NCBI GenBank assembly: GCA_029858205.1
Contig: JAOUFM010000006.1
Location: 6,094 to 70,093, forward strand
Length of the DNA: 64,000 bases
Source of the DNA: Deltaproteobacteria bacterium
Lineage (GTDB): Bacteria; Desulfobacterota; GWC2-55-46; DRQE01
Direction of reading: 5' to 3'
The number at the start of each line of letters is the position of its first letter. Position 1 is the first letter of the stretch. The notes under the pieces were generated by a model, which did no database searches, was not told the DNA's origin, and was given only the letters and a program-made list of their open reading frames with translations. This document shows positions 632-32,247 of this stretch, piece by piece. The translations under genes were made by a program, and so were the position numbers.

Positions 632-3235
632 TCAGTCGCCAGCGAGGTCCTTTAATTCGTTTAGTATGTTTAGCGCCTCGATGGGCGTAATCAAGTCTGC
701 GTCCACTGCCTTGAGGCGTTCCTTTAGGGCATCTGTTTTTTTGTATGACAGAGGAAGATTACCCTGCCTTGCGTCGTCCTTGCCGGCAATCCTCGGAGAG
801 CCGGAAGAGTTAAGTTCGCCGTTCTCGATGTTACGAAGTATTTCCTTTGCCCTCGCGATTACCTCTTTTGGCAGCCCCGCAAGCTTCGCTACCTGTATGC
901 CGTAGCTTTTACTGGCCCCTCCCGGGACGACGCGGCGAAGGAAGGTGATCTTGTCGCCCCATTCCTTTATAGCCATATTATAATTTTTGACGCGCTCCTT
1001 TGTCAAGGAAAGCTCTGTGAGCTCGTGGTAATGGGTGGCGAAGAGAGTTTTACAGCCAAGAGAGACTGAGTCGTGAAGATGCTCTGCAACCGCCCAGGCG
1101 ATGCTAAGGCCGTCGAATGTGGCCGTGCCCCGCCCTATCTCGTCGAGGATGACGAGGCTTCTTGGAGTTGCGTTATTTAAGATGTTCGCTGTTTCGTTCA
1201 TCTCGACCATGAAGGTGGAATGTCCTTTGGAGATGTCATCCGACGCGCCTACGCGGCTAAAGATCCTGTCCACTATGCCGATAGTAGCCTTCTTTGCCGG
1301 AACAAAGCAGCCGCACTGCGCAAGTATCGTGATTAACGCGACCTGTCTTATGAAGGTCGATTTGCCTGCCATGTTCGGGCCGGTTAGTATGACGATTTGC
1401 GTGGCCACGGTGTCGAGTGCAGTGTCGTTTGGCACGAACTCGGCCCTTATTCCAGCCTCTATGACCGGGTGGCGGCCTTCCTCTATAGTAAGCTCGGTGC
1501 CGCTGTTTATCTTAGGCTTTACGTAGTTATTGTCCTCTGATACCGACGCAAACGATATGAGGGAATCAAGTGTAGCCACGGCCTCGGAGGTCTTCTGTAT
1601 CCTTTCAACATAAGCGGCCACTGTCTTTACGATATCGGAGAAAAGCTCGGCCTCGAGGCTCTTTGCCTTTTCTTCTGACGTTAGTATTTTCGATTCCCAC
1701 TCTTTAAGCTCAGGAGTTACGAACCTCTCGGCGTTCGCGAGTGTCTGCTTACGCGAGTACTCTGGCGGCAGACAGGCGTTCTTCATCGCGCTCTGTGTTA
1801 TCTCGATATAGTAGCCAAAAACGCGGTTATACCCGACCTTTAGCGTATTGATGCCGGTTTTTTTTCTTTCCGAGCTCTCGAGCCCGGCTACCCACTCTTT
1901 TCCTCCTCCGCCGATCTTTCTAAGTTCGTCTAACTCGGCCGAGTACCCGTCGGCGATAACGCCGCCGTCCTTTAGCGTTGCAGCTGTGTTTTCTCTAACA
2001 GATCTTGCGATGAGCCCTGCTGCCTCCGGCACCGCGTCGATAGAACCGGTAATATTTTTTATCAGCGGCGAAGAAAAGTTTTTACTAAGCAGTTCTTTTA
2101 GTTCCCCTGCCCTCTCAAGCGATGCCTTTAGCGCCACCATATCGCGCGGCGAGGACATCCTTACCGCAACCTTTGCGCCAAGGCGCTCGAGGTCATAGGT
2201 CTTATCCAGGGTGTCGGCAGCCTCTACCCTCGCCCGCCGCGCCTCGATTAATTCGCCCACAGCGTCGAGCCTGGCCTTTACCCCGGCTTCGTCGATAAGC
2301 GGGCTGATGAGCCAAGAGCGAAGCGTCCTTGCGCCCATGCTCGTACGCGTTCTGTCAAGGTGGCTAAGGAGCGAGCCTTTTTTGTCGGTTGACCTTGAGT
2401 TTTCAATTAGCTCTAGACTTTTCCGCGTTGCCGCGTCCATCATCAATGCGCTGTCGGTTCTAAGACGGACAAGCTTTTTTACGTGCGTAAGCTCTGTCTT
2501 CTGCGCGTCTTTAACGTACAAGAGCAGCGCCCCTGCCGCTACGGTAGCCGCGCCTTCTGTATCAAAGCCAAAACCCTCGAGGCTTACGACCCCGAAGTGC
2601 TCCTTTAGTGCCTCTATAGCCGCTTTCTTCGAGAACTTATCCGGCGCTGCTATGATAAGCGGCCCTGCCCCGTTATCTTCCGCTCTTGCAACAGCCGCTT
2701 TGTCGCCAACGATTATCTCCGAGGGCGTAAGCTTTGCTATCTCGTCCTCGAGCACTGCGGCGCTCTCGAACTCCGAGGCCCGAAACTCCCCTGTTGATAC
2801 GTCCATGAAGGCAATCCCGTGCGTCTTGCCGCTCACACTTATTGCGGCGATAAAGTTATTCAACTTCGCATCTACTATTTCGTCCTCGAGCGCCGTGCCC
2901 GGGGTGACAACCCGCACGACCTTGCGTTCGACAACGCCCTTTGCCTCTGCCGGGTTCTCGGTCTGCTCGCATATTGCGACCTTGTGCCCTGCCTTCACGA
3001 GTTTTGCGACATATAAAGCCGCTGCATGATAGGGCACGCCGCACATGGGGATTTTTTTCTCCTTGTCCCTCGATGTAAGCGCTACCCCCATGACCTTCGA
3101 GCCCACGAGCGCGTCCTCGTAGAACATTTCGTAGAAGTCACCCATACGAAAGAACACGACCGCGTCCTTGTGCCTCTCCTTTATCTCGAGGTACTGGCGC
3201 ATCGCAGGGGTTGCGTTTTCGATATCCATAGCCAT
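632..3235 (-). CDS. mutS: DNA mismatch repair protein MutS
   Basis: 868-aa ORF with an N-terminal mismatch-binding motif (TPAMRQYLEIK...GDFYEMF), a Walker A (GPNMAGKST) and a full-length MutS architecture. The start is probably the ATG that overlaps the upstream stop. Confidence 0.95.
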   Translation of the reverse strand: MAMDIENATPAMRQYLEIKERHKDAVVFFRMGDFYEMFYEDALVGSKVMGVALTSRDKEKKIPMCGVPYHAAALYVAKLVKAGHKVAICEQTENPAEAKGVVERKVVRVVTPGTALEDEIVDAKLNNFIAAISVSGKTHGIAFMDVSTGEFRASEFESAAVLEDEIAKLTPSEIIVGDKAAVARAEDNGAGPLIIAAPDKFSKKAAIEALKEHFGVVSLEGFGFDTEGAATVAAGALLLYVKDAQKTELTHVKKLVRLRTDSALMMDAATRKSLELIENSRSTDKKGSLLSHLDRTRTSMGARTLRSWLISPLIDEAGVKARLDAVGELIEARRARVEAADTLDKTYDLERLGAKVAVRMSSPRDMVALKASLERAGELKELLSKNFSSPLIKNITGSIDAVPEAAGLIARSVRENTAATLKDGGVIADGYSAELDELRKIGGGGKEWVAGLESSERKKTGINTLKVGYNRVFGYYIEITQSAMKNACLPPEYSRKQTLANAERFVTPELKEWESKILTSEEKAKSLEAELFSDIVKTVAAYVERIQKTSEAVATLDSLISFASVSEDNNYVKPKINSGTELTIEEGRHPVIEAGIRAEFVPNDTALDTVATQIVILTGPNMAGKSTFIRQVALITILAQCGCFVPAKKATIGIVDRIFSRVGASDDISKGHSTFMVEMNETANILNNATPRSLVILDEIGRGTATFDGLSIAWAVAEHLHDSVSLGCKTLFATHYHELTELSLTKERVKNYNMAIKEWGDKITFLRRVVPGGASKSYGIQVAKLAGLPKEVIARAKEILRNIENGELNSSGSPRIAGKDDARQGNLPLSYKKTDALKERLKAVDADLITPIEALNILNELKDLAGD

Positions 3236-5463
3236 CACACTATCCAGTGCGTCTGTTCGTAGTCGGTATCAGGAGCCTCTATCGAGAGATACCCTCTTGC
3301 CGGCCAGCGCTCGCTTTTTTTGCCGCTCTCGTAAGAGACCTCTATAAAGAGCCTCAGCTCGTCCCTTGCCTTTGCGCCGAATACGGAAAACGGCACTGCC
3401 ATCTCGACAACGCTTTGCGACTTGATTGTCTCTAACTGCACGGCATCTCCCCATGTATTGGAGCCGACGTCTTTTTGATATATGTTCGCCGAAGAGCTTG
3501 CTCCCTCGACATTCACCTCAATTTTAACCTCGCGCGGGCTAAGCGCCGTTATCTCAAAGCTCCAGGGCTTCTCGTACACGCCGTCGCTGTCAGTGAGTTC
3601 TTTTTTGTAATCGAACCTGAGAAACAATCTATCGATGCTAAAGCCGTAGAGTATTTTACCCAGCAGCCCGCCCTTTAGTTCCGAGACCTGGTGCATTGCG
3701 CCGCCTGTCTTTTGCGCCTCTATAGCTGCGGCAGAGAGCCATTCGAAATAATTTGTGACCTTGCCGTCTATCACAGGTTCCATAAAGGCGTGCGGCAATG
3801 CAGAGGGCACGAACCCGCGTTCTTCGGAGATGATGGGTATGTCGAGTGATGAAGGAGGCTCTTCGCCAAGGAGCGCGTAGACCTTTTTAAGATAAGACCG
3901 GAAAAGAAGGTCGAACTGTTTGTCGTTCATGGATGCGTGCTCGTCGCCGTACCACCAGAACCAGTCGCTGCCTTCCGCCGCGTAGAGCGCGTTCCACGCG
4001 CCTTGGATGTCCTCGTTCTCAGAGCTCGACCGTAAGGCGTGTTTCTTTATCATGTCTCTTGCGCCGCTTATCGCGTCCCACGCCGAGTTATCCTCCTGAT
4101 GCCCTATCCAGATCTTGAAGTTCCCGTTTATCCACGACCCGCTCGCTATGCGCTCAAGGGGCTCAGCTGAGCCGTAAGAATTAAGGAACTCGGAAACAGT
4201 TACCGTGCGAGCGAAATCGGAGTCGGAAAGACGCGAGTAAAGTTCGCGGAAAAAATCGTTACCGTCGTTAGGATAGGACTCCCATGCGTTCTCGCCGTCG
4301 AGTATTACCGATACAAGAGAGCGTGCCGGGTCTTTTGTGACAGCGTGTATCTTTTTAATCCGCTCCATGAAATCAGCGGCAGCGTCCTTTGCCCCGAACT
4401 TCGAGTAATCGAAGCCGATTCTGTCGGAGATGACGCGGTCGCGAAATATCATGTTCATGCTGGAAGCGCCCTGCCCGACCCTGTAGGGCTTGTATATCAT
4501 GTCGGTTGTCGGATGTCCGTACTTATCTCTCTCGGCCCTCTGCCTAAGAGAGGCCTCGAGTATCGCCTCGTCGGTAGCTATCCAATTTATCCCTTCCTCT
4601 GCCATTATCTTGACGGCCTCCATACTGACCGAGCCTTCGCTTGGCCACATGCCTTTTGGAGCAAAGCCGAATGTGTCCTTGAAAGACTTGATTGCCCTTC
4701 TCACGTGCTCTCTTGCGTCCTCTGGCGTCAGCACGCGTGTTTTAGGGAGCGAAACTCCCGGCATTGCTTCCCTTGCGCTGTCGCTATCGCATAGAAGCGG
4801 CAGTATCGGATGAAAGTACGGCGAGACGGTAAGCTCGATTTGCCCCTTCTCGGCCATTTCCTTATACTTGGGGATGATGGCTCGCATGATAGCCGTCTGC
4901 TTTATAAGGAGCTTTGCCTTGTCGTCTTCGCTAAAGTTCCTGCCCTTTTCAGTCAGGGCTTTTAAGAATTCGTCCTTTTCGCGAAGCATTGGGTCTATCC
5001 ATGAGAGGAAAAATAGCACTTGCAGATCGCGGTACTCTTCAGTTGAGAAAAACCTTATTGCTGCCTCGGTATCTTCCCTTAGCCACGAGAACCCTCTCTT
5101 CACAAGAAGAGACCAGTACCGGCTAAACGGCCTTATGACAGTTTCCCAGTTGGCCTGGAAAAAACTTTCCAGTAAAAAGAACTTGTCGTCGGCGGTAAGC
5201 TCTTCCGAGCTCTTCGCAACGACTGCCCGGTATTTGTCGTTTACCGTATCGGACTCGTAATCCCTTATCTGTTCGATGAGAGACGGAACAAGGTTGAAGG
5301 TCTGCTTTATGCTTGGGAAGCCCTCGAGCATGGAGGGCATGTCGAGGTAGTCTTTGGTGCCGTGGAGAAGCACCCATGGAAGTATGTACTCGCCGCTAAA
5401 AGGGTCTTTGTATATCGGCTGGTGCATATGCCATACAAAGGCTATGTTGAGCCGTTTATCCAT
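3235..5463 (-). CDS. Glycoside hydrolase family 57 protein (alpha-amylase/alpha-glucanotransferase-like) with a C-terminal extension
   Basis: The NIAFVWHMHQPIYKDPF...ILPWVLLHGTKDY motifs are typical of GH57. The start is most likely the internal MDKRL, immediately after the upstream stop. Confidence 0.8.
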   Translation of the reverse strand: MDKRLNIAFVWHMHQPIYKDPFSGEYILPWVLLHGTKDYLDMPSMLEGFPSIKQTFNLVPSLIEQIRDYESDTVNDKYRAVVAKSSEELTADDKFFLLESFFQANWETVIRPFSRYWSLLVKRGFSWLREDTEAAIRFFSTEEYRDLQVLFFLSWIDPMLREKDEFLKALTEKGRNFSEDDKAKLLIKQTAIMRAIIPKYKEMAEKGQIELTVSPYFHPILPLLCDSDSAREAMPGVSLPKTRVLTPEDAREHVRRAIKSFKDTFGFAPKGMWPSEGSVSMEAVKIMAEEGINWIATDEAILEASLRQRAERDKYGHPTTDMIYKPYRVGQGASSMNMIFRDRVISDRIGFDYSKFGAKDAAADFMERIKKIHAVTKDPARSLVSVILDGENAWESYPNDGNDFFRELYSRLSDSDFARTVTVSEFLNSYGSAEPLERIASGSWINGNFKIWIGHQEDNSAWDAISGARDMIKKHALRSSSENEDIQGAWNALYAAEGSDWFWWYGDEHASMNDKQFDLLFRSYLKKVYALLGEEPPSSLDIPIISEERGFVPSALPHAFMEPVIDGKVTNYFEWLSAAAIEAQKTGGAMHQVSELKGGLLGKILYGFSIDRLFLRFDYKKELTDSDGVYEKPWSFEITALSPREVKIEVNVEGASSSANIYQKDVGSNTWGDAVQLETIKSQSVVEMAVPFSVFGAKARDELRLFIEVSYESGKKSERWPARGYLSIEAPDTDYEQTHWIV

Positions 5464-5467
5464 GGCG

Positions 5468-6742
5468 TCATACGGGGGCCTTGAAGACGTAGAGACGCCC
5501 TTTTCTGTCGATGAATGCCGCGCCGCCGTTAAACAGCGCCGGCTCCGATAGCATATATGTCCCGAACTTTTTCTCCCACACAACGGTTCCGTCCGTTGCA
5601 GAATAGACCGTGATATACGATACGTCCTTTTCGAGCCTCTTTATGCCAAGCGGCCTGTGCTTGGCGTTTCTGAAGACAAATATATGATTGCCGGACATTG
5701 CGAGGAAACTTACGGTCGAATCCTTTGGCATATCGGATATCCAGAGCACCTCTCCGGTAGAGGCCGTCATGGCCGTCATTCGCTCGTTGGTTGCCGCGTA
5801 GAACACGCCGTCCTTGATGGCAAAGTCCGAGACCCCGGTTATATCATAGCGTATTTTTTTCTCCCCGCTAATAGCGTCGTATGCAGTGACGTACCCGCCG
5901 TAGTCTATGGCATAGACCATGGAGCCGCCAAGCAGCGGGGCGTGTCTTGCGCCCCTGTCAGCCAGGTAATTGCCTGTAGAACGCGCTTGCCAGAGTTCTC
6001 GCCCTGTCGAAGCGTCAAGCGCTGCCAGGTATCCATCAGAGAACATTACATAGAGACGTCCGTCTGCGTACGCAGGCGAGTTGACGAGGCGCGGCAGCAC
6101 TGTTTCGCCAGACGGGCTCGAAGCCCCCCAGAGCTTCTTGCCTGTTGCGGCGTCAAGGGCGTAGAGACGGTTATCTTCGGAAAGCATGAAAACGCGACCC
6201 TCGGCAATGACCGGGGCCGCAAGTATCTCGGCCTTGGCGTCCATTTTCCAAAGCTCTGCCCCGCTTTTACGGTCAAGGCAGTGAAATACCGTATTGACCG
6301 TTCCAAAACATACCTTATCGCCATCGACCGTAGGCGCTCCGTTTACCGGGCTCTTCGGCTTGAACTTCCACACGGTCTTGCCGCTTGTCAGATCAAAGGC
6401 GAAAAACCGGTTACCGGGTGAACCGGCGTAGAGGATGTTATCGTAGACAATCGGGCTCGATGACGTATCGGGAACGCTTAGCTTGAAAAAGCGCTGGTAA
6501 AACGTCCTGACCGAGCGTTTCCAGGTCTTTTTTAGCGGCACGTCGATGGGGCCGGGATGCATGGAATCCCTCTTATAATCGCTGTGGTGAGTGCCCCATG
6601 CCGTTTCTATAGGTGCTGCGCTTTCCGTGTCAGCCTTAGGCGCTACAGCGCCGGCGCAGCCGGATACGAAGAAAATAAAACATAAGACCAGTACTAAATT
6701 AAATCGTCTATCCAAGTATTTTCTCAAGCAAAGTTTCGGCAT
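5468..6742 (-). CDS. PQQ-like beta-propeller repeat lipoprotein (BamB-like)
   Basis: Signal peptide with a lipobox-like Cys (LVLVLCFIFFVSGC), followed by repeated W/Y-rich beta-propeller blades (YAGSPGNRFFAFDLTSGKTVWKF...). Confidence 0.55.
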   Translation of the reverse strand: MPKLCLRKYLDRRFNLVLVLCFIFFVSGCAGAVAPKADTESAAPIETAWGTHHSDYKRDSMHPGPIDVPLKKTWKRSVRTFYQRFFKLSVPDTSSSPIVYDNILYAGSPGNRFFAFDLTSGKTVWKFKPKSPVNGAPTVDGDKVCFGTVNTVFHCLDRKSGAELWKMDAKAEILAAPVIAEGRVFMLSEDNRLYALDAATGKKLWGASSPSGETVLPRLVNSPAYADGRLYVMFSDGYLAALDASTGRELWQARSTGNYLADRGARHAPLLGGSMVYAIDYGGYVTAYDAISGEKKIRYDITGVSDFAIKDGVFYAATNERMTAMTASTGEVLWISDMPKDSTVSFLAMSGNHIFVFRNAKHRPLGIKRLEKDVSYITVYSATDGTVVWEKKFGTYMLSEPALFNGGAAFIDRKGRLYVFKAPV

Positions 6743-7355
6743 TTTTTCTGGCTATTTTAAACTCCTCTTCCGTCATATTGGCGCCAATGGCAACGCGTCT
6801 GGCAGTATCGACCGTTATAAGGTCGCCCGGCGAATGCGTATCGGTATTTACGATAAGACCGACACCGTGCTTTCTTGCGGCTGCCGCCACGTGGCCGTTT
6901 GTGAGGCTGTGGCCTTTTCTGGAGGTTATCTCGAAATATACGCCTGCCTTTGCCGCAAGCACAGCGTCTTCGGCGCTAACGAGCCCCGGATGCGCGAGTA
7001 TGTCCACCCCTGCCCTTATGGCAGCACTGTTGGTTCCGGCCTCCACAGGCTCTACAATTGTCTCTCCGTGGCAAACGACTATTTTTGCGCCAAGCTTACG
7101 TGCCCTGGCTGCAAGCGGCCCTATGGCCTCCGGGGCAACGTGCGTTATCTCAACGCCAGGGACGACCTTTACCCTGCCGCCTTTGTATGATGCCGTGAAG
7201 CGAAGCGTCTGCTCTATTACTTCTTCCATATTGGATTCATCCACATGGTCGGTGATTGCAAGCGCCCTGTACCCTGCGGCAGCGGCCCTGGCCGCGAGCT
7301 CGGAGGCAATGAGCTCGCCGTCCGAGTTAAAGGTGTGCGTGTGAAAATCTATCAT
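6708..7355 (-). CDS. PHP-domain phosphoesterase (histidinol-phosphatase-like)
   Basis: MIDFHTHTFNSDG...ITDHVD...HSPGDL is a PHP metal-binding His/Asp pattern. Confidence 0.6.
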   Translation of the reverse strand: MIDFHTHTFNSDGELIASELAARAAAAGYRALAITDHVDESNMEEVIEQTLRFTASYKGGRVKVVPGVEITHVAPEAIGPLAARARKLGAKIVVCHGETIVEPVEAGTNSAAIRAGVDILAHPGLVSAEDAVLAAKAGVYFEITSRKGHSLTNGHVAAAARKHGVGLIVNTDTHSPGDLITVDTARRVAIGANMTEEEFKIARKNAETLLEKILG

Positions 7356-8908
7356 GCGCCTCCGCTTGAGGCGAAGTCGGTTGCCGAGATATGGCTCATG
7401 AAGGCCTTGAGCACCTTTATGATGCTCTCCTTCTGGTCCGTGCCGCCCTTTAACACGTTTAACTCGTCCGAGGGCTTCATGGCCGCAAGACGCTTGAAGT
7501 TCGCAGTCTGTTCGGCCGATATATCGCTGTTTGCGACAGCGACGTTTAATACCGGCACCCGCCTGTTCGTTACGATGCGTTCCTTGAACTTGTTCATGTC
7601 ACCGAATGTGGCGGTATTCTCGTCCATGAGTATTATCGCGCCGATAAGGTTCGGATAGAACGTTATCATCAGCGGCACCATCGCGAGGTTGCACGGCACG
7701 GAGTAAAAGGCGATATCCAAGTCTCCGTAGACCCTTATGGCCCCTATCTCGCCGAGTATGAAGTCCTCTATCTTCGAGCCGCCTTTAAGGTCCAACGGGC
7801 TTCTAAAGTCCGGAAGTTTCGAACACGCGGCCACGAAGTCCTTTGCAAGTGCCGGGGACGGAGATGCCACGAACACGCGGCCAAAGTTCACGTTCAGGTT
7901 CTCGCCCCACTTGCCTATGACCTGTTCCTTTATCCTCACGGCCTGTGCAGGAGTCACAATGCTAAGCTTGTCGGTATCAGGGCCGCCGGTGTCCTTTACC
8001 TCGGATAAGATATTTCTCTGTATAAGATTCCTTATGGTCGTGTATGCGTCGTAATCCGGGAAGGAGCAGTGGTCGACAAGCTCCTTTACCGTCGAGTAGT
8101 ACTTCGTAAGGAATATTATTTCTGAAATGGCCGGCTTTAGCCCCTTTGGAAGCGTTGCGGTGTCGACGTTAACCTTGATAAGGGAATTATCGCGCGGGAA
8201 CTTGTCTTTATCCCTCTCGAACTCATCGAAGAGCCTGGCGCCTTCCATTAGAAGGTTTCCTGTCGGCACGTCGATTTTTTGCGGCACGTTAACAGGCTCC
8301 GGCACGAACTCAAAGGCCCCTTTGGGCCACATGAAGAAGCGGTAGAGGGCCTTTTCCTTCTCGGCCTCGGCAACGGTAGCGTTAAACACCTGGCCGCCCT
8401 TCATGTATATCTTGCCGACGTGCTTGTCGCCCTGTATGGTAAGGACGCCTTCCTTCTGGTTAAAGTGCAATACCTGAAGAAGATCCACAAGCGACATCTG
8501 CGCCAGGTCTCCCCTGATGTGCCCTGCCGCGTCCGCGCCGGAAGCTATAAACATGCCCTGCTTTACTACGCCGTAGAGCTCGCCCCAGTGGAATGGACGT
8601 ACGAGTATCGTGTCAGTGCCAGGACGGTAGCCCTTTACGTCGGTCTGCTTGTCCGCTATGAAGACAAACGGCACGGACGCCGTCTTAGGGTTGCTTTTTA
8701 CCATCTGAAGGAGCCTGTCTGCGGTAACGCCTGCGATGTTTACGTCGCATATTATGACGCCAGGGGCACGCTTTATGACCTCTTCCATGGTCTTTGCGCC
8801 GTCATTCGTAACGACGTGCTCGAGGGCGTTTTCCTTTAGCCCTTTTGTAATGGAGGAGGTATCCTCGTCGTTTTTCAGCGCGAGCAGTATGTATTTGGTC
8901 TCGGCCAT
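7352..8908 (-). CDS. Receiver (REC) - PATAN/DUF4388 - C-terminal degenerate Ras-like (P-loop-less) domain protein
   Basis: N-terminal CheY-like fold (GVIICDVNIAG...FVFIADKQ). The central GDLAQMSLVDLLQVLHFNQKEGVLTI segment is the DUF4388/PATAN signature. The C-terminal ~200 aa resemble a small GTPase fold (DIAFYSVP..., ...NVAVANSD) but lack a GxxxxGK[ST] P-loop. Confidence 0.5.
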   Translation of the reverse strand: MAETKYILLALKNDEDTSSITKGLKENALEHVVTNDGAKTMEEVIKRAPGVIICDVNIAGVTADRLLQMVKSNPKTASVPFVFIADKQTDVKGYRPGTDTILVRPFHWGELYGVVKQGMFIASGADAAGHIRGDLAQMSLVDLLQVLHFNQKEGVLTIQGDKHVGKIYMKGGQVFNATVAEAEKEKALYRFFMWPKGAFEFVPEPVNVPQKIDVPTGNLLMEGARLFDEFERDKDKFPRDNSLIKVNVDTATLPKGLKPAISEIIFLTKYYSTVKELVDHCSFPDYDAYTTIRNLIQRNILSEVKDTGGPDTDKLSIVTPAQAVRIKEQVIGKWGENLNVNFGRVFVASPSPALAKDFVAACSKLPDFRSPLDLKGGSKIEDFILGEIGAIRVYGDLDIAFYSVPCNLAMVPLMITFYPNLIGAIILMDENTATFGDMNKFKERIVTNRRVPVLNVAVANSDISAEQTANFKRLAAMKPSDELNVLKGGTDQKESIIKVLKAFMSHISATDFASSGGA

Positions 8909-9966
8909 TAGAGCTGCTCCTGCAGATACATGTCTCTCTGGAACTTGGTGATAAGACCCTCGACGATATACGGGTTAGCAGTGTGGAAACAGTTATACGT
9001 CTCCCCCCAGCTCTCTTTGCATATAAGCGCATAAGCCGCGTGCTCGGTAAGGAAGAACGTAAAGAGCATCTCGGTTACTCGCGGGTCGTTTATGGTAATG
9101 GCAATGGCATTACGGATGTCGGCGTTCTTGTCGACGTGCTCGCCGACGAGAAAGACTTTTGTAGAGCTCCTGCCCATGTTCTTTATGGTCTTTAGTATCG
9201 GCAGGTCTGCGGATATGTTCTTTGCGCCTATGTAAAGCACGCCGCGCCTGTCGGGGTTTCGTATGATCTCTTTTATGATAGCGTCGTTGATGCGGCCGAT
9301 ATAGTCCATGTTAAAATCGCTATTGCCGCCGGCATCGAAGGTCTGGAAGTCGTAGCCCGAGAGGCTCCCGGAGGTAAGAAGCGCAACTACCTCCCAGAAG
9401 AGCTTTGTCTTTAGCTGCTTTTGCTCCCAAAACGATGTCTTTATCTCGTGGAGCCTTGTGGTGGCCATGTTAACGAGCTCGCCGTACCCGACCGAATCCT
9501 TCGGGAACGTGGACTGCGACACCACGACAGATGCATGCGGGTCGCCCTTGTGCGTGTAGGGCTCGAGCGCCTTGGTGAGCTTCTTTAGCGTTATCAGGGA
9601 GCCGAAGTAATCGGTATTGGGAAGCACCATCAGCACGCGCCGCTCATCGAGCTTTCCGGCAACGTCGCAGTTGCGGATTACCTTGATGACGATGTCGGAA
9701 ACTATCTTCATGAAGGACTCGAGCTCCGCGCCCTCGGCCTTTCTCGCGCCGCTAGCGAAGCTGTCTACCTGAAGAAGTATCACCGAAAACGACATGCCGT
9801 AGCGCTCGGCCCTTACGCTCTCTATCTTTCCGTACTCGTTTACGAAGAAAGAGTCGTAGATGCGCCCTTCGATGCTCTTGGTCATTTCCTCGAGCCTCGA
9901 TGGCTTTGACGCTGCGGCCTCTTCGGCCTCGGAAAGTTTTTCGAAATCTACGAAATTATCGGACAT
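8908..9966 (-). CDS. Degenerate (catalytically inactive) GGDEF-like domain protein with an uncharacterized C-terminal domain
   Basis: RAERYGMSFSVILLQVDSF...KLDERRVLMVLP follows the GGDEF-domain skeleton (RxGxxFSxxxxDxDxF...RxGGxEFxxLLP) with the GG[DE]EF motif replaced by DERRV. The probable start is the internal MSDNFVDF, at about 9966. Confidence 0.5.
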   Translation of the reverse strand: MSDNFVDFEKLSEAEEAAASKPSRLEEMTKSIEGRIYDSFFVNEYGKIESVRAERYGMSFSVILLQVDSFASGARKAEGAELESFMKIVSDIVIKVIRNCDVAGKLDERRVLMVLPNTDYFGSLITLKKLTKALEPYTHKGDPHASVVVSQSTFPKDSVGYGELVNMATTRLHEIKTSFWEQKQLKTKLFWEVVALLTSGSLSGYDFQTFDAGGNSDFNMDYIGRINDAIIKEIIRNPDRRGVLYIGAKNISADLPILKTIKNMGRSSTKVFLVGEHVDKNADIRNAIAITINDPRVTEMLFTFFLTEHAAYALICKESWGETYNCFHTANPYIVEGLITKFQRDMYLQEQL

Positions 9967-9982
9967 TATTCTCTCTGCCCCG

Positions 9983-10477
9983 CTACATCTTGTACTTCCC
10001 GAAAGATTCGGGAGTAAGGTTCTCAAGCGTTTCACCGCCGGCCTTAGAGCCGTCGGCGGTCTTCGGCGCCTTGGAATAATCCACCGAGCGCGACTTTTCT
10101 ATTATGGACGCCTCCACGAATATCGGCGACGACATCCGAAGCGCAAGCGCTATGGCATCGCTTGGCCTCGCGTCCACGGCTATGACAGCTCCGGCGTGGT
10201 TTAGATGTATTGTCGCGTAGTAGACGTTTTCCCTCAAGTCGTTTACCTCTATCCTCTTTAGCGAGACATCGACCTTATCGAGCACGTTCCTGAAAAGGTC
10301 GTGCGTCATCGGGCGCGTAAACTTCATCTTCTCTACCTCCGAGGCTATCGCGCTTGCCTCGAGCACGCCTATCCAGATGGGAAGCGTATTGTCGGAGTTT
10401 ACGTCCCTAAGTATCACTATCGGCGCATTTGTCATGGGGTCTACGGTAATGCCAGCCACGCGCATCTCTATAAACAC
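9983..10477 (-). CDS. Bifunctional nuclease family protein (BFN/DUF151)
   Basis: 164 aa; ...PIWIGVLEASAIA...ARPSDAIALALR... is typical of the DUF151 nuclease fold. Confidence 0.55.
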   Translation of the reverse strand: MFIEMRVAGITVDPMTNAPIVILRDVNSDNTLPIWIGVLEASAIASEVEKMKFTRPMTHDLFRNVLDKVDVSLKRIEVNDLRENVYYATIHLNHAGAVIAVDARPSDAIALALRMSSPIFVEASIIEKSRSVDYSKAPKTADGSKAGGETLENLTPESFGKYKM

Positions 10478-11838
10478 GGCACAATCCCCCTTTCATCCTT
10501 TGCTTCTACTGTAACGGCCGCTCCGCGTAGCGAATTCGCGTACGCCTTCTCTATTCTCACGCCGACCTCATCCCCTGCCGCTATCCCCTTTGCCTTCGGA
10601 AAGTTTACGGCCCTCGAGCACGGAGACCTTCCGGTTAAATCGTCTGCCGAGACCTTGCTTTCGCCCTCGACAAGAACTTTCACAGTTTTACCTTCGAGCG
10701 CCCTGCTCTTTTCAAACGATATGGCGCGCTGGAGCGTCTGTATCTCTTCGAGCCGTATTGCCTTCACGTCCTCGTCTACCTGGGCATCAAATGCAGCTGC
10801 CTCTGTGCCCGGGCGCGGCGAGTACTTGAAGGAAAATATATTGTCAAAGCGAACGTTCTTTAAGAGCCTTATCGTTGCCGCGTGGTCCTCATCAGTTTCT
10901 CCGGGGAATCCGGCTATTATGTCTGTTGTAAGCGCCATGTCCGGGTAAAGGGTCTTTAGCCTCTCGACCTTTGCCATGTAGGACTCGATTGTATACCCGC
11001 GCTTCATTGCCTTTAGCACGTTATTGGAGCCCGACTGCGCCGGAAGGTGCAGCGCCCTCTGGAGCTTTTCTTCTTTGCCAAAAAGCTCGATTAATTCATC
11101 CGACATGTCCTTGGGGTGCGATGTGACGAACCTTACGCGCTTTATGCCGTCGACATTCGCGACCATGCGTAGCAGCTCGGGAAAGCTCTTTTCCCCTGCG
11201 TAGGAGTTGACGTTTTGCCCGACAAGCGTTACCTCTCTTGTGCCCTTGTTGGAGAGTTGTTTGACCTCGTCGATTATCTCGCTAACGCTTCTGCTTGCCT
11301 CCCTGCCCCTTACATACGGCACGATGCAATAGGCGCAGAAGTTGTCGCACCCGCGCATGATGCTAACGAATGCCTTTACTCCCGCTTCTTCTGCAACCTC
11401 GTACTCGTCTCTGTCGATGCCTTCCTTAAAGTCCGTGTACGCTGCCCTTATGCCTGTTTCAGCGCCTTTTACTATGTCGCCTATCTTGTGGATGTTGTGC
11501 GTGCCAACGACCACATCCAGAAACGGCGCCCTCTTTAGAAGCTCCTCGCCAGATTGCTGCGCAACACAGCCGCTAACGCCGATAAGGAGCCCGGGCTTAT
11601 CCTTCTTCATGAGCTTATAGCGTCCAAGTGTCGAGTACACCTTGTGCTCGGCCTTGTCCCTTATGCTGCAGGTGTTTACGAGGATTAAATCAGCTTTCTC
11701 GGCGTCTTCGGTTGGAATGTAGTTATTCCTACGAAGCCGCTCGAGCATCCTTACCGAATCGTCCTCGTTCATCTGGCAGCCGAAGGTCTCTATGTAGACG
11801 CATTTGCTTGATTTTTCGGCTTTTTCGACAATGTCCAT
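10468..11838 (-). CDS. miaB: tRNA-2-methylthio-N6-dimethylallyladenosine synthase (radical SAM methylthiotransferase)
   Basis: N-terminal MTTase domain (YIETFGCQMNEDDS), radical SAM CxxxCxxC (MRGCDNFCAYC) and a C-terminal TRAM domain; 456 aa. Confidence 0.9.
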   Translation of the reverse strand: MDIVEKAEKSSKCVYIETFGCQMNEDDSVRMLERLRRNNYIPTEDAEKADLILVNTCSIRDKAEHKVYSTLGRYKLMKKDKPGLLIGVSGCVAQQSGEELLKRAPFLDVVVGTHNIHKIGDIVKGAETGIRAAYTDFKEGIDRDEYEVAEEAGVKAFVSIMRGCDNFCAYCIVPYVRGREASRSVSEIIDEVKQLSNKGTREVTLVGQNVNSYAGEKSFPELLRMVANVDGIKRVRFVTSHPKDMSDELIELFGKEEKLQRALHLPAQSGSNNVLKAMKRGYTIESYMAKVERLKTLYPDMALTTDIIAGFPGETDEDHAATIRLLKNVRFDNIFSFKYSPRPGTEAAAFDAQVDEDVKAIRLEEIQTLQRAISFEKSRALEGKTVKVLVEGESKVSADDLTGRSPCSRAVNFPKAKGIAAGDEVGVRIEKAYANSLRGAAVTVEAKDERGIVPCL

Positions 11839-11931: not shown

Positions 11932-13347
11932 TCAGTACACACCCATGGCATGGTAAGCGCGTTCTATTTTCTCTATGGCAATGTAATACGCCGCGGTTCT
12001 GTAGTCGGTTATGGCAGGGTTTTGCGCCATGACTTCGCGAATTTCCTGCCATGCTGTACGCATCGTATCGTCAAGGCCAGAGTACACGAGGTCAAGCTCG
12101 TCAGCTCCGCGAAGCAGTTCCTTATACGCCCATTCAGGGAGCTTCTTACCGGTGATTTCCTCGATTGCCTTTGTGATGTGCTGGCCCCTTAGCTCGTCGA
12201 AGCGCCTGCCCATCCTGCCAAACCGTATGTGCCCGATGTTCCTTACCCATTCAAAGTAGCTGACTGTAACGCCGCCGGAGTTAAGGAACGCGTCCGGGAT
12301 GACTGTGATGCCGCGCTTTCTAAGTATCTCGTCTGCCTCGAATGTGGTCGGGCCGTTTGCAGCCTCGGCAACTATCTTAGCGTTTATCCTTCCCGCGTTC
12401 TCTTCGGTGATTACGCCTTCCATCGCAGCTGGCATGAGTATGTCGCATTCAATCGTCATGGCCCCGGCCCTGTCCTCGCCAAATGAGCCGCCTGAGAAGC
12501 CTTTTACTCCGCCTGCCTTGATTATGTGCGCCCTCAGGTCGTCTATGTTGATGCCCTTGGGGTTGGTTATAACGCCATCACGCTCGATTACTGCGATGAC
12601 CTTGACCCCATCTTCCTCTGAAAGGAACTTTGCCGCGTGGTAGCCGACGTTGCCGAGCCCTTGCACGACCATGCGCTTATTGGAAAGGTCTCCGGAGAGG
12701 CCGCATTTCTCGACATCATCGATAAACCTAAAGAGCTCGCGAAGCGCGTACTGTATGCCCTTTCCCGTTGCCTCTGTCCTGCCCCTTACACCTCCAAGGT
12801 GCACTGGCTTTCCGGTAACGCACGCGATGTAGTTTATGTCCTCTGGATATAAATTCTTATAGGTGTCCATTATCCAGGCCATTTCCCTCGGGCCTGTGCC
12901 CATGTCCGGGGCCGGGACGTTTGTTGCGGGGCTTAAAAAGCCGCGGATTGCGAGCTCTCTTGCGTACGCGCGCGTGATTCGCTGAAGCTCGTCGCGTTCG
13001 TATTTTAGCGGGTCTACACAGAGCCCGCCCTTTGCGCCGCCAAAGGGCACGTCAACGATTGCGCACTTGTATGTCATTAAGGAAGCAAGCGCCTCGACCT
13101 CGTCCTGATTAACGTCGGATGAGTACCTGATGCCGCCCTTTACAGGGAGCATGTGGGAGCTATGTGTTGCGCGATATCCGGTGAACATCTCGGTCTTGCC
13201 TTTGATTTCCACCGGGAACTGGACTTTGATAACAGCGTTACACTGCTTAATAGCTGCCGCAAGGCCGGGGCTTAATTTTTTTACAATCATCGCCCTGTCG
13301 ACCATCAGGTCTACGTTCTCGCGAAAGCTTTTCTTTTTATTTGGCAT
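11932..13347 (-). CDS. gdhA: NAD(P)-dependent glutamate dehydrogenase
   Basis: GGAKGGLCVDP, the Glu/Leu/Phe/Val dehydrogenase active-site motif; 471 aa. Confidence 0.9.
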   Translation of the reverse strand: MPNKKKSFRENVDLMVDRAMIVKKLSPGLAAAIKQCNAVIKVQFPVEIKGKTEMFTGYRATHSSHMLPVKGGIRYSSDVNQDEVEALASLMTYKCAIVDVPFGGAKGGLCVDPLKYERDELQRITRAYARELAIRGFLSPATNVPAPDMGTGPREMAWIMDTYKNLYPEDINYIACVTGKPVHLGGVRGRTEATGKGIQYALRELFRFIDDVEKCGLSGDLSNKRMVVQGLGNVGYHAAKFLSEEDGVKVIAVIERDGVITNPKGINIDDLRAHIIKAGGVKGFSGGSFGEDRAGAMTIECDILMPAAMEGVITEENAGRINAKIVAEAANGPTTFEADEILRKRGITVIPDAFLNSGGVTVSYFEWVRNIGHIRFGRMGRRFDELRGQHITKAIEEITGKKLPEWAYKELLRGADELDLVYSGLDDTMRTAWQEIREVMAQNPAITDYRTAAYYIAIEKIERAYHAMGVY

Positions 13348-14919: not shown

Positions 14920-15567
14920 TTACCAAGCCTCGGCATCTTTCAGTCGCTCGACATCATAAGTTAATTGTTTAATCATTTGACGTACATACCAATAAAGACC
15001 TTCGACCTTTAGCAATATTGCATAGCCATGCGTTCTTCTGACTTTAATTATTGCGCCAGACATACCTTCAGGACGAATGTCAGTTTCCAATTGTTGGATA
15101 GCCAACTCGTCCATGCCTGGAGAGTCCCGATCAATTTTTAATGCAACAATTGCTCTATTACCAGGAAAAATTTCCTTTATTAAGTCAAAATCGAGCTTAG
15201 CCGCATTATGTATCAATGGATTCCTAAAAACGTGATAAATTATTCTTGCAGCATACTCTGGTGCTACTCCGCTTTCTTTGGGTCCCCCGTCCCAAGGAAA
15301 GTACTCTTTTACTACTTTTTTAAAGTTATCACTAGAATCCTGTTTTTGCTCTTGGTTATAAAAAACTACGGAACATCCTGCTATAACCGAAAAAAGAATT
15401 GTAGCAATTGAAAAATTTAATCCTGCTTTAATCCCATGCTCTGGCATTGGAAGTCGCAACATTGCATGTATATCTTTTAAAGAATTGTTCTCTATATTTC
15501 CCCTTATGAATTTTCTTAGTTTCTCTGAAATTTCAGGATTAATATTTAACTCCGAATAACTCACTTT
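14920..15567 (-). CDS. Hypothetical membrane-anchored protein, about 216 aa, in a low-GC island
   Basis: A GGAGG SD lies 3 nt before a GTG start (VSYSELNI...). There is one TM helix (LNFSIATILFSVIAGCSVVF). The sequence is AT-rich. No recognisable family. Confidence 0.4.
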   Translation of the reverse strand, partial: KVSYSELNINPEISEKLRKFIRGNIENNSLKDIHAMLRLPMPEHGIKAGLNFSIATILFSVIAGCSVVFYNQEQKQDSSDNFKKVVKEYFPWDGGPKESGVAPEYAARIIYHVFRNPLIHNAAKLDFDLIKEIFPGNRAIVALKIDRDSPGMDELAIQQLETDIRPEGMSGAIIKVRRTHGYAILLKVEGLYWYVRQMIKQLTYDVERLKDAEAW

Positions 15568-15728
15568 CCCTCCACCCCCAAAAACCGCCAAGTTTGCCGT
15601 CAGGCGAGGCAGCGGGCGGTTTTGCTCCGCAGGCGTATTCGACAATACGTCGAGGAAGTAAAAACGCCCGCTAACGACGCATCACGGCAAAATCGGCGGT
15701 TTCCTTTTGTCCAAAGGTTGCGCTTGCA

Positions 15729-16931: not shown

Positions 16932-18032
16932 GTGCCGATTATGATGTATATTTTAACAATGGAGAGAACCAAGCCATTTCTCGACGAGGCCACGCGGGAG
17001 GCCATCGAGGCAATACGCCATTCCGACCGTATCCTTGAGCTAAAGACCTTTAGCGAAATAGGCAAGGCGCTTACGTCCTCTGTCTCTCTAAACGAGGTCA
17101 TGGAGGTCGCGCTCGAGCAAATCACAAAACTTCTAAGGGCAAAGTACTGGTCGCTTCTCCTGATAGACGAGGTAGCAGGAGAACTGAAATTCGAGATAGC
17201 CGTTGGTGAAGGCGCTGACAAGCTAAAGGAAATGCGGCTAAAGCTTGGCGAAGGAATCGCCGGCTGGGTCGCGGAAAAAGGCGTTCCGCTGCTTGTCCCG
17301 GACGTTCGCAGAGACCCGAGGTTTACGAAAAAAGGCGACAATGTGACGAACTTCCAGACGCGCTCAATCATCTGCGTCCCTCTTGTCACAAAGGGCAAAA
17401 CACTTGGCGTAATAGAGCTTATAAACAAAGTCGAAGAGGACTTCTACGGCGAGCAGGACCTCTTTCTCCTCACCACCATGGCCGACTATACGGCCATAGC
17501 AATAGAGAACGCCCTGCTCTTCGACAAGATACAGCAATTGACCGTCACAGACGATTTGACGCAGCTTGGGAACTCGAGGTTCCTGCACACGTTCCTCGAC
17601 CAGGAAGTCGAGCGCGCAAAGCGCTACGACGAGCACATATCCATGATATTCATCGACATGGACCACTTTAAGCAGATAAACGACGTGCACGGCCATCTCT
17701 GCGGCAGCAAGATGCTAACCGAGTTCGCGGGCATATTGAAGCGGGTTTTGAGAAAGGTCGACATCGCGTGCCGCTACGGCGGTGACGAGTTCGTAATAGT
17801 TTTACCGGCCACGCCAAAGGACAAGGCAAAAATCGTTGCAGAAAAAATTCTCACCGCGTGCAACGAGCACGTGTTCCTCAAAGAAGAAGGCCTCAATAAA
17901 AAAATGACGGCCAGCATCGGGGTCGCTTCCTTTCCAGTGGACGCCAAAAGCAAGCTCGAACTCATACAGCTTGCCGACCATGCCATGTACCGCGTAAAGA
18001 ACCGATCGAGAAACGCGGTGGAGGTGGCGTAA
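16932..18032 (+). CDS. GAF-domain diguanylate cyclase (active GGDEF)
   Basis: GAF domain followed by a GGDEF domain with an intact RYGGDEF and an upstream RxxD-like element. The start may be the internal MERTK. Confidence 0.85.
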   Translation: MPIMMYILTMERTKPFLDEATREAIEAIRHSDRILELKTFSEIGKALTSSVSLNEVMEVALEQITKLLRAKYWSLLLIDEVAGELKFEIAVGEGADKLKEMRLKLGEGIAGWVAEKGVPLLVPDVRRDPRFTKKGDNVTNFQTRSIICVPLVTKGKTLGVIELINKVEEDFYGEQDLFLLTTMADYTAIAIENALLFDKIQQLTVTDDLTQLGNSRFLHTFLDQEVERAKRYDEHISMIFIDMDHFKQINDVHGHLCGSKMLTEFAGILKRVLRKVDIACRYGGDEFVIVLPATPKDKAKIVAEKILTACNEHVFLKEEGLNKKMTASIGVASFPVDAKSKLELIQLADHAMYRVKNRSRNAVEVA

Positions 18033-29994: not shown

Positions 29995-32247
29995 TCATGA
30001 CGGCTCGGATGCCTCTACAAGCGGCCTTGTAAGCGCCCTCTCAAGAATGTCAGCGTAGGTTTCGCCGTCGCCGGGAAAGCATGCGTACCCGTAGAACATG
30101 CCTGCCTTGAACTCGCGTGGCGCATCCGACAATATATCGCGGTTAAAAACATCGACAACGCGCCTGTCGGTTTCAAGAAAAAGTATGCCGACTGTGTCGT
30201 CATCGAGCATGGCAACGGAATCGAATATGCGGATCTTGCCTCTTACGTACGTAAGAAGCCTCTTTATAAATTCCTTTTTTGCAAACCCCTTTATGCCGGT
30301 GAGCTCTCCGGCCCTTGCCGTAACGAACACAAACTGTTTGCCAAACCTTGCAGCTCTCTTTAGTTCCTCCTCCACCCTTCTCTCGAAGAGCCCGGGGGTT
30401 ACGATATCCCATGCGTCTTTTGTCTCGGCGCTGTCGCGTATGGCCGCGAGCACGCGCTCGACGTATGCAACGAACCTGGCTATGACTTCGGTGTCGTTTT
30501 TGGAGAACGGCTGCGCGTAAGGGCTTTCCTCGTCAAAGCGGTTAAAGAGCGATATAAACCCCTCGACATTCCCGTCGGTAAGGATTGGAAAGGTAAGCAT
30601 GCCTCTGATTACGGGGTTAGAGTCTTCGGAGAACTCTCTACGAACCGGCTCCTTTCTTCGCTGGACTTCCTTTACGGTCTCGTCCTCGAGCGGCAGAAAC
30701 GACTCCTTCTTTTTCATGTTCTCGATGCCGAAGGTGGCGACGCGCTCGAACCCCGCGTCAGGCGAACTGCTCTTGATACGCAGCACCGCGCCCTCGGCAT
30801 TTAGAATGTCCACGGCAGCTATCGTTATCATTGGATAGAGCTTTTCTGTATCGCGTATGGCAATCAGCTTTAACCCGGCCTCGTCGGCTGCGACAAGACG
30901 CTTGGATTTTGCCATGTCCTCGTCGTTACGCCTGTTGACGTAGATGCTTTCGGAAAGAAGCGCTGTCATCTCCTTTAAAAACGCCTCATTATATTTCGAC
31001 AACCCGCGTTTAGATGATATCTCGGCAACGAACACGCCTACGGTCTGTTCCTTTGCTGTCATAGGAATGGCCATCAAAACGCGCTTTAGCCTTTTTTCCG
31101 GCAGCCTGTCGACAAGAACCACTTCCTTCATTGCCTCGATTGCCGCGCCTACAACGCCCTCACCGGAGGCAAAGCTCACGTGCCCGGTCGAAGGCGGTGT
31201 CTTTGCGCTGGAAGAATAAATAACGAGCCGCTTCATGTCCTCGTTATAAAGGTATATCGTGCACGTAAGCCCGGGGATGAGCTCCGAAAGCTTTCTGCAC
31301 ACGGTATTAAGGCGCGTGTGAAGCGGCTTATGGTCCGACATGCTGAACTCGAGCTTTTTCCAGAGGTCGAACTTCGCCGCCTCTATCCTCATCTTCTCGA
31401 ACTCTCCGGCGCGGTTTATGACCTCTGCCGCTAGCCCGGAAAGGTTCTTTAGCAGTTCCATGTCGGCATCGGTGAAGGTCTTCTTCGAGCCCGATGAGTT
31501 GACGTTCAAAACGCCTATGACGCCGCTTTCTATAGTAAGAGGCACACATATCGCGCTCGATGCGCCGCGCCTTGTGCCGAGGCGGCCAAACTCCTCTTCC
31601 TTTGCCCTGCCGTTTATCAGTATGGGCCTGCCGTCCTTGGCGACCTTTCCGGAAACGCCATCGCCGAGCTTTACGTTTACCTTACGGATGATTTCCTCAT
31701 CCATCCCTCTTGCAACTTCGATCTTGAGTGCCCCCTCGGCCTTGTCAACGAGCATTATGGAACCGGCATCCGCGCCGCTTGTCTCTATTGCAATGTCAAG
31801 AAGGCTTCCAAGGAGCTCGTCTCTATCGCTTGTGAGCTTTACGCCGTTCACTATCTCGCGTAGCGGCCCCAGGTAATTTGGCGAGGCATGTCCCGCAACA
31901 GCTCCTCTTACACCCCAGAGGAGGCGCGCGCTCAAGGCAGATAGCTTCTCGACATCGTCGAACTCGGAGGAATCGAGGAACTTGGCGGTTGCCGCGTCGT
32001 CCACCGCGTTTATGATGACGTCAAGAGAATCTATGGCCTTTATATCCTCGAGCTCATAGGTAACGCTTATGCCAAGCTTCTTCGATATCCTGTAGCCAAG
32101 CTCCATGAGCTTATAGAGCATGGCATCGGGGTTCGGGTCGGCAATAAGCACGATGCGGTTACCTTTGTCCTTCAGGAGGTCCGGTAGAAGAGAAAGCGCT
32201 TCTTTATTGGCGCCGATGATGGCGATGTTCTTTTTATTCGAAGCCAT
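29995..32247 (-). CDS. Multi-GAF-domain protein with a C-terminal degenerate GGDEF-like domain
   Basis: An N-terminal Rossmann-like segment and at least two GAF-like regions (SIMLVDKAEGALKIEVARG...). The C-terminus RFGKQFVFVTARAGEL...MLDDDTVGILFLETD follows the GGDEF skeleton but lacks GG[DE]EF. Confidence 0.6.
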   Translation of the reverse strand: MASNKKNIAIIGANKEALSLLPDLLKDKGNRIVLIADPNPDAMLYKLMELGYRISKKLGISVTYELEDIKAIDSLDVIINAVDDAATAKFLDSSEFDDVEKLSALSARLLWGVRGAVAGHASPNYLGPLREIVNGVKLTSDRDELLGSLLDIAIETSGADAGSIMLVDKAEGALKIEVARGMDEEIIRKVNVKLGDGVSGKVAKDGRPILINGRAKEEEFGRLGTRRGASSAICVPLTIESGVIGVLNVNSSGSKKTFTDADMELLKNLSGLAAEVINRAGEFEKMRIEAAKFDLWKKLEFSMSDHKPLHTRLNTVCRKLSELIPGLTCTIYLYNEDMKRLVIYSSSAKTPPSTGHVSFASGEGVVGAAIEAMKEVVLVDRLPEKRLKRVLMAIPMTAKEQTVGVFVAEISSKRGLSKYNEAFLKEMTALLSESIYVNRRNDEDMAKSKRLVAADEAGLKLIAIRDTEKLYPMITIAAVDILNAEGAVLRIKSSSPDAGFERVATFGIENMKKKESFLPLEDETVKEVQRRKEPVRREFSEDSNPVIRGMLTFPILTDGNVEGFISLFNRFDEESPYAQPFSKNDTEVIARFVAYVERVLAAIRDSAETKDAWDIVTPGLFERRVEEELKRAARFGKQFVFVTARAGELTGIKGFAKKEFIKRLLTYVRGKIRIFDSVAMLDDDTVGILFLETDRRVVDVFNRDILSDAPREFKAGMFYGYACFPGDGETYADILERALTRPLVEASEPS

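Follow-up and report, generated by a model that had tools for sequence, protein, structure and literature searches.

A motif-less Ras-like domain fused to PATAN, encoded in a conserved gene pair with a degenerate GGDEF protein

What can a Ras-like domain do in a signalling protein when the motifs for binding nucleotide are missing from it? The question is raised by two genes on the minus strand of a 64,000-nucleotide stretch of deltaproteobacterial DNA (the window; assembly GCA_029858205.1, contig JAOUFM010000006.1). One encodes a protein of 518 amino acid residues (aa) with a PATAN (DUF4388) domain and a GTPase-like C-terminus; the other, directly upstream, encodes a protein of 352 aa with a GGDEF fold. 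The analysis shows that the two genes are a conserved, translationally coupled module in which all recognisable enzyme-type domains are devoid of catalytic motifs. For the pair as a whole we infer a function as a cyclic di-GMP (c-di-GMP)-responsive adaptor acting through protein binding. The genes and their junction are:

7352-8908, minus strand: PATAN gene, 518 aa (P0001); open reading frame (ORF), with a protein of identical sequence in the NCBI metagenome-assembled genome (MAG)
8908-9966, minus strand: GGDEF-like gene, 352 aa (P0047); ORF and homologues
8906-8910, minus strand: TAATG junction, one base common to the stop and start codons (sequence CTC TAATG GCC)

Both the ORFs and the TAATG sequence agree with the original prediction, made without database searches, in coordinates, strand and the 1-nt overlap of stop and start. 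The AlphaFold2 model of the 518-aa protein, built on a 102-sequence alignment (mean predicted local distance difference test, pLDDT, 91.6), contains four domains, namely a receiver, PATAN, a winged helix and a G-like domain:

8543-8896, minus strand: degenerate receiver, residues 5-122
8201-8518, minus strand: PATAN / DUF4388 domain, residues 131-236 (PF14332, E 2.7e-24)
7997-8182, minus strand: winged-helix-like domain, residues 243-304 (strand, three helices, strand in the AlphaFold2 model)
7379-7891, minus strand: pseudo-GTPase domain of Ras-like fold, residues 340-510 (AlphaFold2, hhalign, PDB profile matches, Foldseek)

The C-terminal domain is a homologue of the small Ras-superfamily nucleoside triphosphatases (NTPases) with the full G-domain topology. 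Residues 340-510 follow the order b1-a1-b2-b3-a2-b4-a3-b5-a4-b6-a5 of a G domain, modelled at a pLDDT above 90. A profile of residues 318-518 built from 20 relatives gave weak PDB matches to Arf GTPases (E 0.02), all confined to the switch II/b4 segment (PLW…G-l-i-f-V-v-D). Against 1.84 billion representative proteins the same profile retrieved 376 proteins (clusters at 50% identity), nearly all of which share an architecture of about 500-530 aa; three are free proteins of 170-180 aa, P0281 (E about 2e-13), P0298 (about 1e-11) and P0311 (about 3e-10). P0311 passes the Pfam thresholds of Ras and ATP_bind_1 and P0298 that of ATP_bind_1. P0281 by itself has no PDB match, and the joint profile of the three matches Ras structures in the PDB (E 2e-5). 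With hhalign the G-like domain aligns to the three free NTPases from b1 to a5 (98.8%, E 5e-17, 165 columns). In the reverse direction, the top match of the three-NTPase profile in a six-frame translation of the window is the PATAN gene, ahead of MutS and Obg. A Foldseek search with the full model matched 9edr_G (191 residues; E 1.6e-5, 211 aligned columns), which we take to be the Arl2-type GTPase of the TBC-DEG complex. The Ras-like C-terminal segment that had been proposed, along with a structure prediction as its check, is thus found both in the high-confidence model and in the hhalign homology. Two short matches to the pseudo-GTPase domain (P0293 and P0297) have uninformative contexts, as their contigs are shorter than 2 kb and P0297 is cut by a contig end.

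The elements that correspond to the nucleotide-binding motifs are located as follows:

7841-7864, minus strand: P-loop equivalent, S349-P-S-P-A-L-A-K356, aligned by hhalign to GPSASGKS of P0311
7688-7702, minus strand: G3 equivalent (DxxGQ, or TxxGQ in MglA), S403-V-P-C-N407, aligned with GIPGD of P0311

The domain contains no GxxxxGK[ST]. Among 102 full-length relatives the P-loop columns hold no conserved Gly, Lys, Ser or Thr, and by DSSP the loop from b1 to a1 is just two residues long. Where G3 has its glycine, Gly is outside the five commonest residues (A/T/P/V/S, together in 83 of the 102), and the neighbouring P405 is kept in 97. The position of the G4 asparagine falls by hhalign on V458, in a region that is variable and gapped among the relatives. 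Since G1, G3 and G4 are missing from all 102 full-length relatives, their loss is ancient and family-wide and not specific to this gene. By its sequence, the C-terminal domain is a pseudo-GTPase, failing on all three motifs, as the original prediction had held on the grounds of the absent P-loop. The motif remnants named there fared differently. 'VANSD' had been read as a trace of NKxD, but the column of N460 is gapped in 51 of 102 relatives and lies two residues off the G4 register; likewise the segment equivalent to DxxG is S403-V-P-C-N407 and not 'DIAFYSVP'. An intact fused GTPase was considered for the relative P0262 and rejected: its GLPPSGKT, the only match in the family to a P-loop regular expression, precedes b1 and is a chance match. 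Residues conserved in the G-like domain are K/R344 before b1, G386 and G389 in b2, P405, P412-L-W414, G423 and D429; most of them fall within the interswitch, switch II and b4. In real small GTPases this region is a partner-binding surface.

The free NTPases also point to the ancestry of the fusion. Each of their genes (3/3 contexts) follows a gene with a PATAN domain at a gap of 0-7 nt. In two contexts the order is PilB-like (MshEN+T2SSE), PATAN, NTPase, PilB-like, PilT, PilC and pilin, and in the third PATAN, NTPase, PilB-like, PilC, pilin and prepilin peptidase. The 363-aa PATAN protein of one such locus (L089) aligns to residues 131-310, covering PATAN and the winged helix (98.2%, E 2.9e-14). 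As the PATAN-winged helix protein and the small NTPase are encoded by adjacent, separate genes there and are fused here, the fusion represents a Rosetta stone for that pair. The alignments show the PATAN-winged helix-G part to be the fused counterpart of two adjacent pilus-cluster genes, and the fused module appears to derive from a PATAN and small-GTPase pair of type IV pilus clusters. A genomic association of MglA-type GTPases with PATAN has reportedly been described by Wuichet and Sogaard-Andersen in 2014 and by Makarova et al. in 2006. The association of PATAN with MglA-type polarity GTPases, invoked in the original prediction, is documented in that PATAN genes sometimes adjoin mglA and mglB (PMC4316618); for regulators of Synechocystis, binding of PATAN to PilC and to an N-terminal portion of PilB1 has been described (10.1101/2021.06.11.447907). 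In the split-gene loci of other metagenomic bacteria (L087-L091, e.g. L089 2220-10161) the PATAN-winged helix and NTPase genes adjoin or separate PilB paralogues with c-di-GMP-binding MshEN.

The product of the upstream gene, modelled by AlphaFold2 with a mean pLDDT of 89.6 and a predicted template modelling score of 0.82, consists of two domains:

9436-9861, minus strand: GGDEF-fold domain, residues 36-177
9664-9675, minus strand: I-site motif R98-N-C-D101 (RxxD), as RQSD in 3ign
9634-9648, minus strand: dead active-site motif D107-E-R-R-V111, by alignment to GGEEF of 3ign
8929-9411, minus strand: C-terminal domain resembling the phospholipase D (PLD) superfamily, residues 186-346, without HKD motif and without a Pfam family

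The alignment to 3ign confirms the proposed GGDEF fold and the DERRV in place of the active-site motif, and the replacement extends to the whole family: the consensus among 116 relatives is [DE][DE][RKG][RQK][IVL] instead of GG[DE]EF. The match to PF00990 that had been named as a check was found and the fold is real, at a score below the threshold (19.6 vs 23.8 bits; TIGR00254 22.8 vs 37.4). The second, PLD-like domain had gone unnoticed. Five residues ahead of the GGDEF position stands the RxxD motif, with R98 and D101 present in 116/116 family members, and a basic residue follows about 31 residues downstream (K129 here, R128-K129 in the consensus), at the place of R390 in PleD. The combination of an invariant RxxD with a drifted active site is the pattern that marks degenerate-GGDEF receptors of c-di-GMP, and binding of this messenger is predicted accordingly from the sequence. 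The PLD-like domain lacks HxKxxxxD, has invariant residues of its own and resembles the sugar-binding domain of TrmB; with this domain alone as profile, all matches were fragments belonging to the same family, and no further architecture came to light.

Conservation of the pair was followed in a locus scan over one genome per GTDB species, with a 22-sequence alignment as query. A PATAN relative is encoded in up to 363 species-level loci or genomes. The best 80 of these 363 loci, covering about 50-100% of the query and mostly over 80%, are all from MAGs labelled Deltaproteobacteria, Thermodesulfobacteriota, Myxococcota and others; a protein of the same architecture occurs in cultured Sorangium species. 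Of the 71 species-level loci with at least 1.1 kb of upstream sequence, 66 show the GGDEF-like gene immediately before the PATAN gene and in its orientation; 30 of these 66 pairs overlap by 1 nt and 4 by 4 nt. Even distant relatives (about 26-29% identity) keep the pairing; their upstream proteins of 616-624 aa carry added receiver domains and align over the GGDEF-like and PLD-like domains (hhalign 99.9% and 98.8%).

In the 518-aa protein, the receiver and PATAN domains that precede the G-like domain had been recognised in the original prediction; the degeneracy of the receiver and the winged helix had been overlooked. PATAN is unambiguous (PF14332, 86 bits vs a cut-off of 25, residues 132-229, profile positions 1-120 of 122). 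The N-terminal domain has the receiver fold and scores under the cut-off of Response_reg (PF00072, 24.6 vs 30.2 bits). It keeps D55, with the Mg-binding acidic pair after b1 replaced by L11/N13, the Thr/Ser by A85 and the Lys by R104, so that the phosphorylation site is incomplete; the phosphoacceptor Asp is kept in 44 of the 102 family members. Within the winged helix D285 is invariant, and 28 members gave weak, recurrent Pfam matches of the winged helix-turn-helix type (DnaD_N 13, TrmB 8, MarR_2 2). A fusion of CvnC (DUF742) and CvnD as the origin of the winged helix and G-like domains was considered and dropped, as 28 members searched up to E 10 gave no DUF742 match.

How might such a pair work? 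With moderate confidence we propose that the dead-GGDEF protein is a c-di-GMP receptor complexed with the 518-aa adaptor, whose nucleotide-free G-like domain serves as a docking surface. In this mechanism c-di-GMP would bind the I-site of the 352-aa protein, as in other degenerate GGDEF proteins, and the two proteins would form a stoichiometric complex. The G-like domain, nucleotide-free, would offer a fixed docking surface without a GTP/GDP switch, with its docking patch probably in the switch II/b4 region (P405, P412-L-W414, G423, D429), and c-di-GMP would take over the regulation that the GTP cycle gave to the ancestral pair. The output may be a protein-protein contact made through PATAN, and possibly the winged helix, with a partner for which a PilB/PilC-type or polar machine is a candidate; the PilB/PilC-type machine is suggested by analogy. 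That the pair could bind c-di-GMP or act as a scaffold had been put forward in the original prediction, and this suggestion is strengthened by the invariant RxxD and the conserved translational coupling. Several observations weigh against the mechanism. For direct structural similarity of the G-like domain to a solved GTPase there is a single Foldseek row, as receiver matches took up both lists. Among the three free NTPases two are partly degenerate (in P0298 the motif reads GxxxxGTT), and NKxD is absent from all. The invariance of RxxD could be structural rather than functional. The conserved neighbours (miaB, the BFN nuclease, PHP, GH57, mutS) are housekeeping genes, uninformative on motility, and no pilus, mglA or mglB gene is present within the 64-kb window.

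Other roles can be conceived for the pair, each of them less supported than a c-di-GMP receptor complexed with a docking adaptor. Degenerate GGDEF domains may bind GTP at the A-site, as PdeA of C. crescentus does, and the 352-aa protein might in the same way bind GTP or, considering the likeness of its PLD-like domain to the sugar-binding domain of TrmB and the invariant residues there, another ligand, with RxxD being structural. We regard this as unlikely, given that R98 and D101 are fully conserved while the whole GG[DE]EF has drifted and that the basic K129 / R128-K129 is retained downstream. Still less probable is that the 518-aa protein is a transcription factor whose winged helix, lying after PATAN and before the G-like domain, is the DNA-binding part, with no more than a modulating role for the others. 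The fold in the AlphaFold2 model and weak matches to DNA-binding families (TrmB and MarR_2, and HTH_5 in a split homologue) would fit this role, but all of them lie below the Pfam thresholds, the commonest match, DnaD_N, is a winged helix of the protein-interaction type, and the same winged helix follows PATAN in the pilus-cluster proteins. For PatA-type proteins, the authors of the Synechocystis study themselves deem DNA binding unlikely (10.1101/2021.06.11.447907).

The gene neighbourhood has suggested to us a role in nucleic acid or tRNA metabolism, together with MiaB, the BFN nuclease, the PHP phosphoesterase and MutS, in which the PLD-fold domain acts on nucleic acids. This fold includes nucleases such as NucT, miaB and mostly BFN precede the pair down to an identity of 26-29%, and PHP is often found downstream. 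Yet the PLD-like domain has no HKD motif and all other domains come from signalling families; the miaB-mutS block is wholly syntenic in closer relatives, so that the linkage may largely reflect lineage gene order, and in distant relatives the downstream gene becomes one for a cyclic nucleotide monophosphate (cNMP)-binding protein. We consider such a role slightly less probable again than DNA binding. Finally, some eukaryotic pseudo-GTPases keep nucleotide binding, and the nearest free NTPases likewise do without NKxD, which would be compatible with a C-terminal domain that binds nucleotide non-canonically and cycles as a switch. Against it stand 102 sequences without conserved Gly, Lys, Ser or Thr in the P-loop, G3 glycine or G4, and the two-residue b1-a1 loop, and of all the alternatives we hold this one to be the least probable.

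The components of the module resemble several known systems. With GTPases of the MglA/CvnD type (ATP_bind_1, Ras) the G-like domain shares fold and order of elements, a homology that runs via the free intermediates, and the link to PATAN; it also keeps the proline of the G3 region (T-V-P-G-Q in MglA). In contrast to MglA and CvnD, it is without the P-loop, the glycine and glutamine of G3 and NKxD, and is fused to PATAN-winged helix, while MglA is a free protein. A further possible difference from MglA is the lack of an adjoining MglB/Roadblock gene; none was seen beside the 518-aa protein gene in the related loci examined or among the scanned ORFs of the window, a Roadblock profile search not having been made. 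The PatA-type regulators (PatA, PixG, PixE and LsiR, and SgnC of M. xanthus) likewise combine PATAN with a domain of the receiver fold, and the reported interaction of PATAN with PilB1 is matched by the position of the PATAN gene beside PilB in the split relatives. The 518-aa protein differs from them in its order (receiver-PATAN and not PATAN-receiver), its degenerate receiver, the addition of the winged helix and the pseudo-GTPase, and the lack of a chemosensory operon around its gene.

Fold, dead motif and RxxD of the 352-aa protein are shared with degenerate-GGDEF receptors (PelD, PopA, SgmT and CdgA of Bdellovibrio), so that binding is predicted here. CdgA sits in an MglA-RomR hub, and the 352-aa protein is likewise associated with a partner of the polarity-GTPase type. 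Unlike these receptors it bears a family-specific PLD-like C-terminus, and unlike CdgA it is coupled translationally to a pseudo-GTPase instead of interacting with an active MglA. No family membership at the sequence level was found for this C-terminus with non-catalytic PLD members (the sugar-binding domain of TrmB, and DUF1669 of FAM83). The eukaryotic pseudo-GTPases (pG1/pG2 of p190RhoGAP, and CENP-M) also present a motif-less G-domain fold in a multidomain scaffold; the bacterial domain has an independent origin in an MglA/CvnD-like lineage, and the two are related at the superfamily level only.

The pair lies in a run of genes on the minus strand:

11932-13347, minus strand: glutamate dehydrogenase gene
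10468-11838, minus strand: miaB (MiaB)
9983-10477, minus strand: BFN-domain protein gene (BFN nuclease)
6708-7355, minus strand: PHP phosphoesterase gene
5468-6742, minus strand: PQQ/BamB-like propeller protein gene
about 3235-5460, minus strand: GH57 enzyme gene
632-3238, minus strand: mutS (MutS)

The genes of this run are all real and have homologues in hundreds of genomes. They are densely packed, overlaps amounting to 10 nt for miaB/BFN and 4 nt each for PATAN/PHP and GH57/MutS. A distance of 16 nt separates the stop of BFN from ATG 9966, the correct start of the GGDEF-like gene, as the resulting 352 aa agree with the NCBI model and with homologues of 330-350 aa. At NCBI the identical MAG proteins are annotated as 'DUF4388 domain-containing protein' (518 aa) and 'hypothetical protein' (352 aa). 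With longest-ORF starts, GH57 overlaps the PQQ gene by 116 nt (5468-5583) and the PQQ gene overlaps PHP by 35 nt (6708-6742). The true start of GH57 is probably an internal Met preceding 'DKRLNIAFVWHMHQP', which would make the large GH57/PQQ overlap an artefact of ORF calling. Promoter and terminator scans gave results no better than chance, which do not delimit the transcript, and Rfam and tRNA scans gave nothing near the pair.

In related genomes miaB keeps its place ahead of the pair even where identity falls to 26-29%, and in most loci BFN accompanies it; in a few of the most distant loci miaB is present and no BFN gene could be detected. Downstream, closer relatives continue with PHP, the PQQ propeller protein, GH57 and MutS. 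The block miaB-BFN-GGDEF-like-PATAN-PHP-PQQ-GH57-MutS (window 632-11838) is syntenic in many MAGs at 30-60% protein identity (L001, L003, L007-L059), and AMIN-amidase and GlnD genes continue it in L001 and L003. In two loci of distant relatives a gene for a small cNMP-binding protein takes the place of the PHP gene after the PATAN-pseudo-GTPase gene, directly in L005 (9524-9958) and one gene further on in L006 (2631-3086), which may point to regulation of the module by a second nucleotide messenger.

Elsewhere the window contains further signalling genes. A second, stand-alone PATAN/DUF4388 gene encodes 136 aa (32252-32662, minus strand; Pfam E 3.2e-19), and 4 nt downstream of it lies a gene (29995-32247, minus strand) whose product of 750 aa includes two GAF domains; the two could be a further PATAN signalling pair in the same genome. 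The genes at 16932-18032 and 43271-45070 (both plus strand) encode a bona fide GAF-GGDEF cyclase (PF00990 E 9e-45) and a HAMP-GGDEF protein. Because of this bona fide diguanylate cyclase, the genome can make c-di-GMP. The GGDEF match of the HAMP-GGDEF protein spans profile positions 5-94 only, and the protein may be a further degenerate GGDEF. The segment 14001-16000 has a G+C content of 0.44 vs about 0.52 elsewhere and includes a 241-aa ORF (14920-15645, minus strand) without a Pfam match.

PATAN proteins, pseudo-receivers, degenerate GGDEF receptors and the PATAN-MglA neighbourhood are already known. Pseudo-GTPases are an established idea in eukaryotes and, to our knowledge, have scarcely been discussed for bacteria. 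In the literature searched, with its incomplete coverage, we found no description of a P-loop-less Ras-like domain fused to PATAN-winged helix, of an origin from a pilus pair, or of a pairing with a dead-GGDEF/PLD-like protein. It is possible, albeit doubtful, that no bacterial pseudo-GTPase family was described before this one, in which an MglA/CvnD-like polarity switch would have been permanently fused to PATAN-winged helix, lost nucleotide binding and come under the control of c-di-GMP via a dedicated, co-translated receptor. In that case the GTP cycle would have given way to a single second messenger, in a conserved module that consists of nothing but pseudo-enzyme domains. The practical significance is modest at present. 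The family provides a widespread example of a bacterial pseudo-GTPase with a traceable likely ancestry. The fusion lends independent Rosetta-stone support to a direct functional link between PATAN-winged helix proteins and small MglA-like NTPases in pilus clusters, a link noted previously solely as an occasional gene neighbourhood. In the module, c-di-GMP and Ras-like polarity signalling meet in one operon, which is testable in the cultivable Sorangium, where an orthologue is present.

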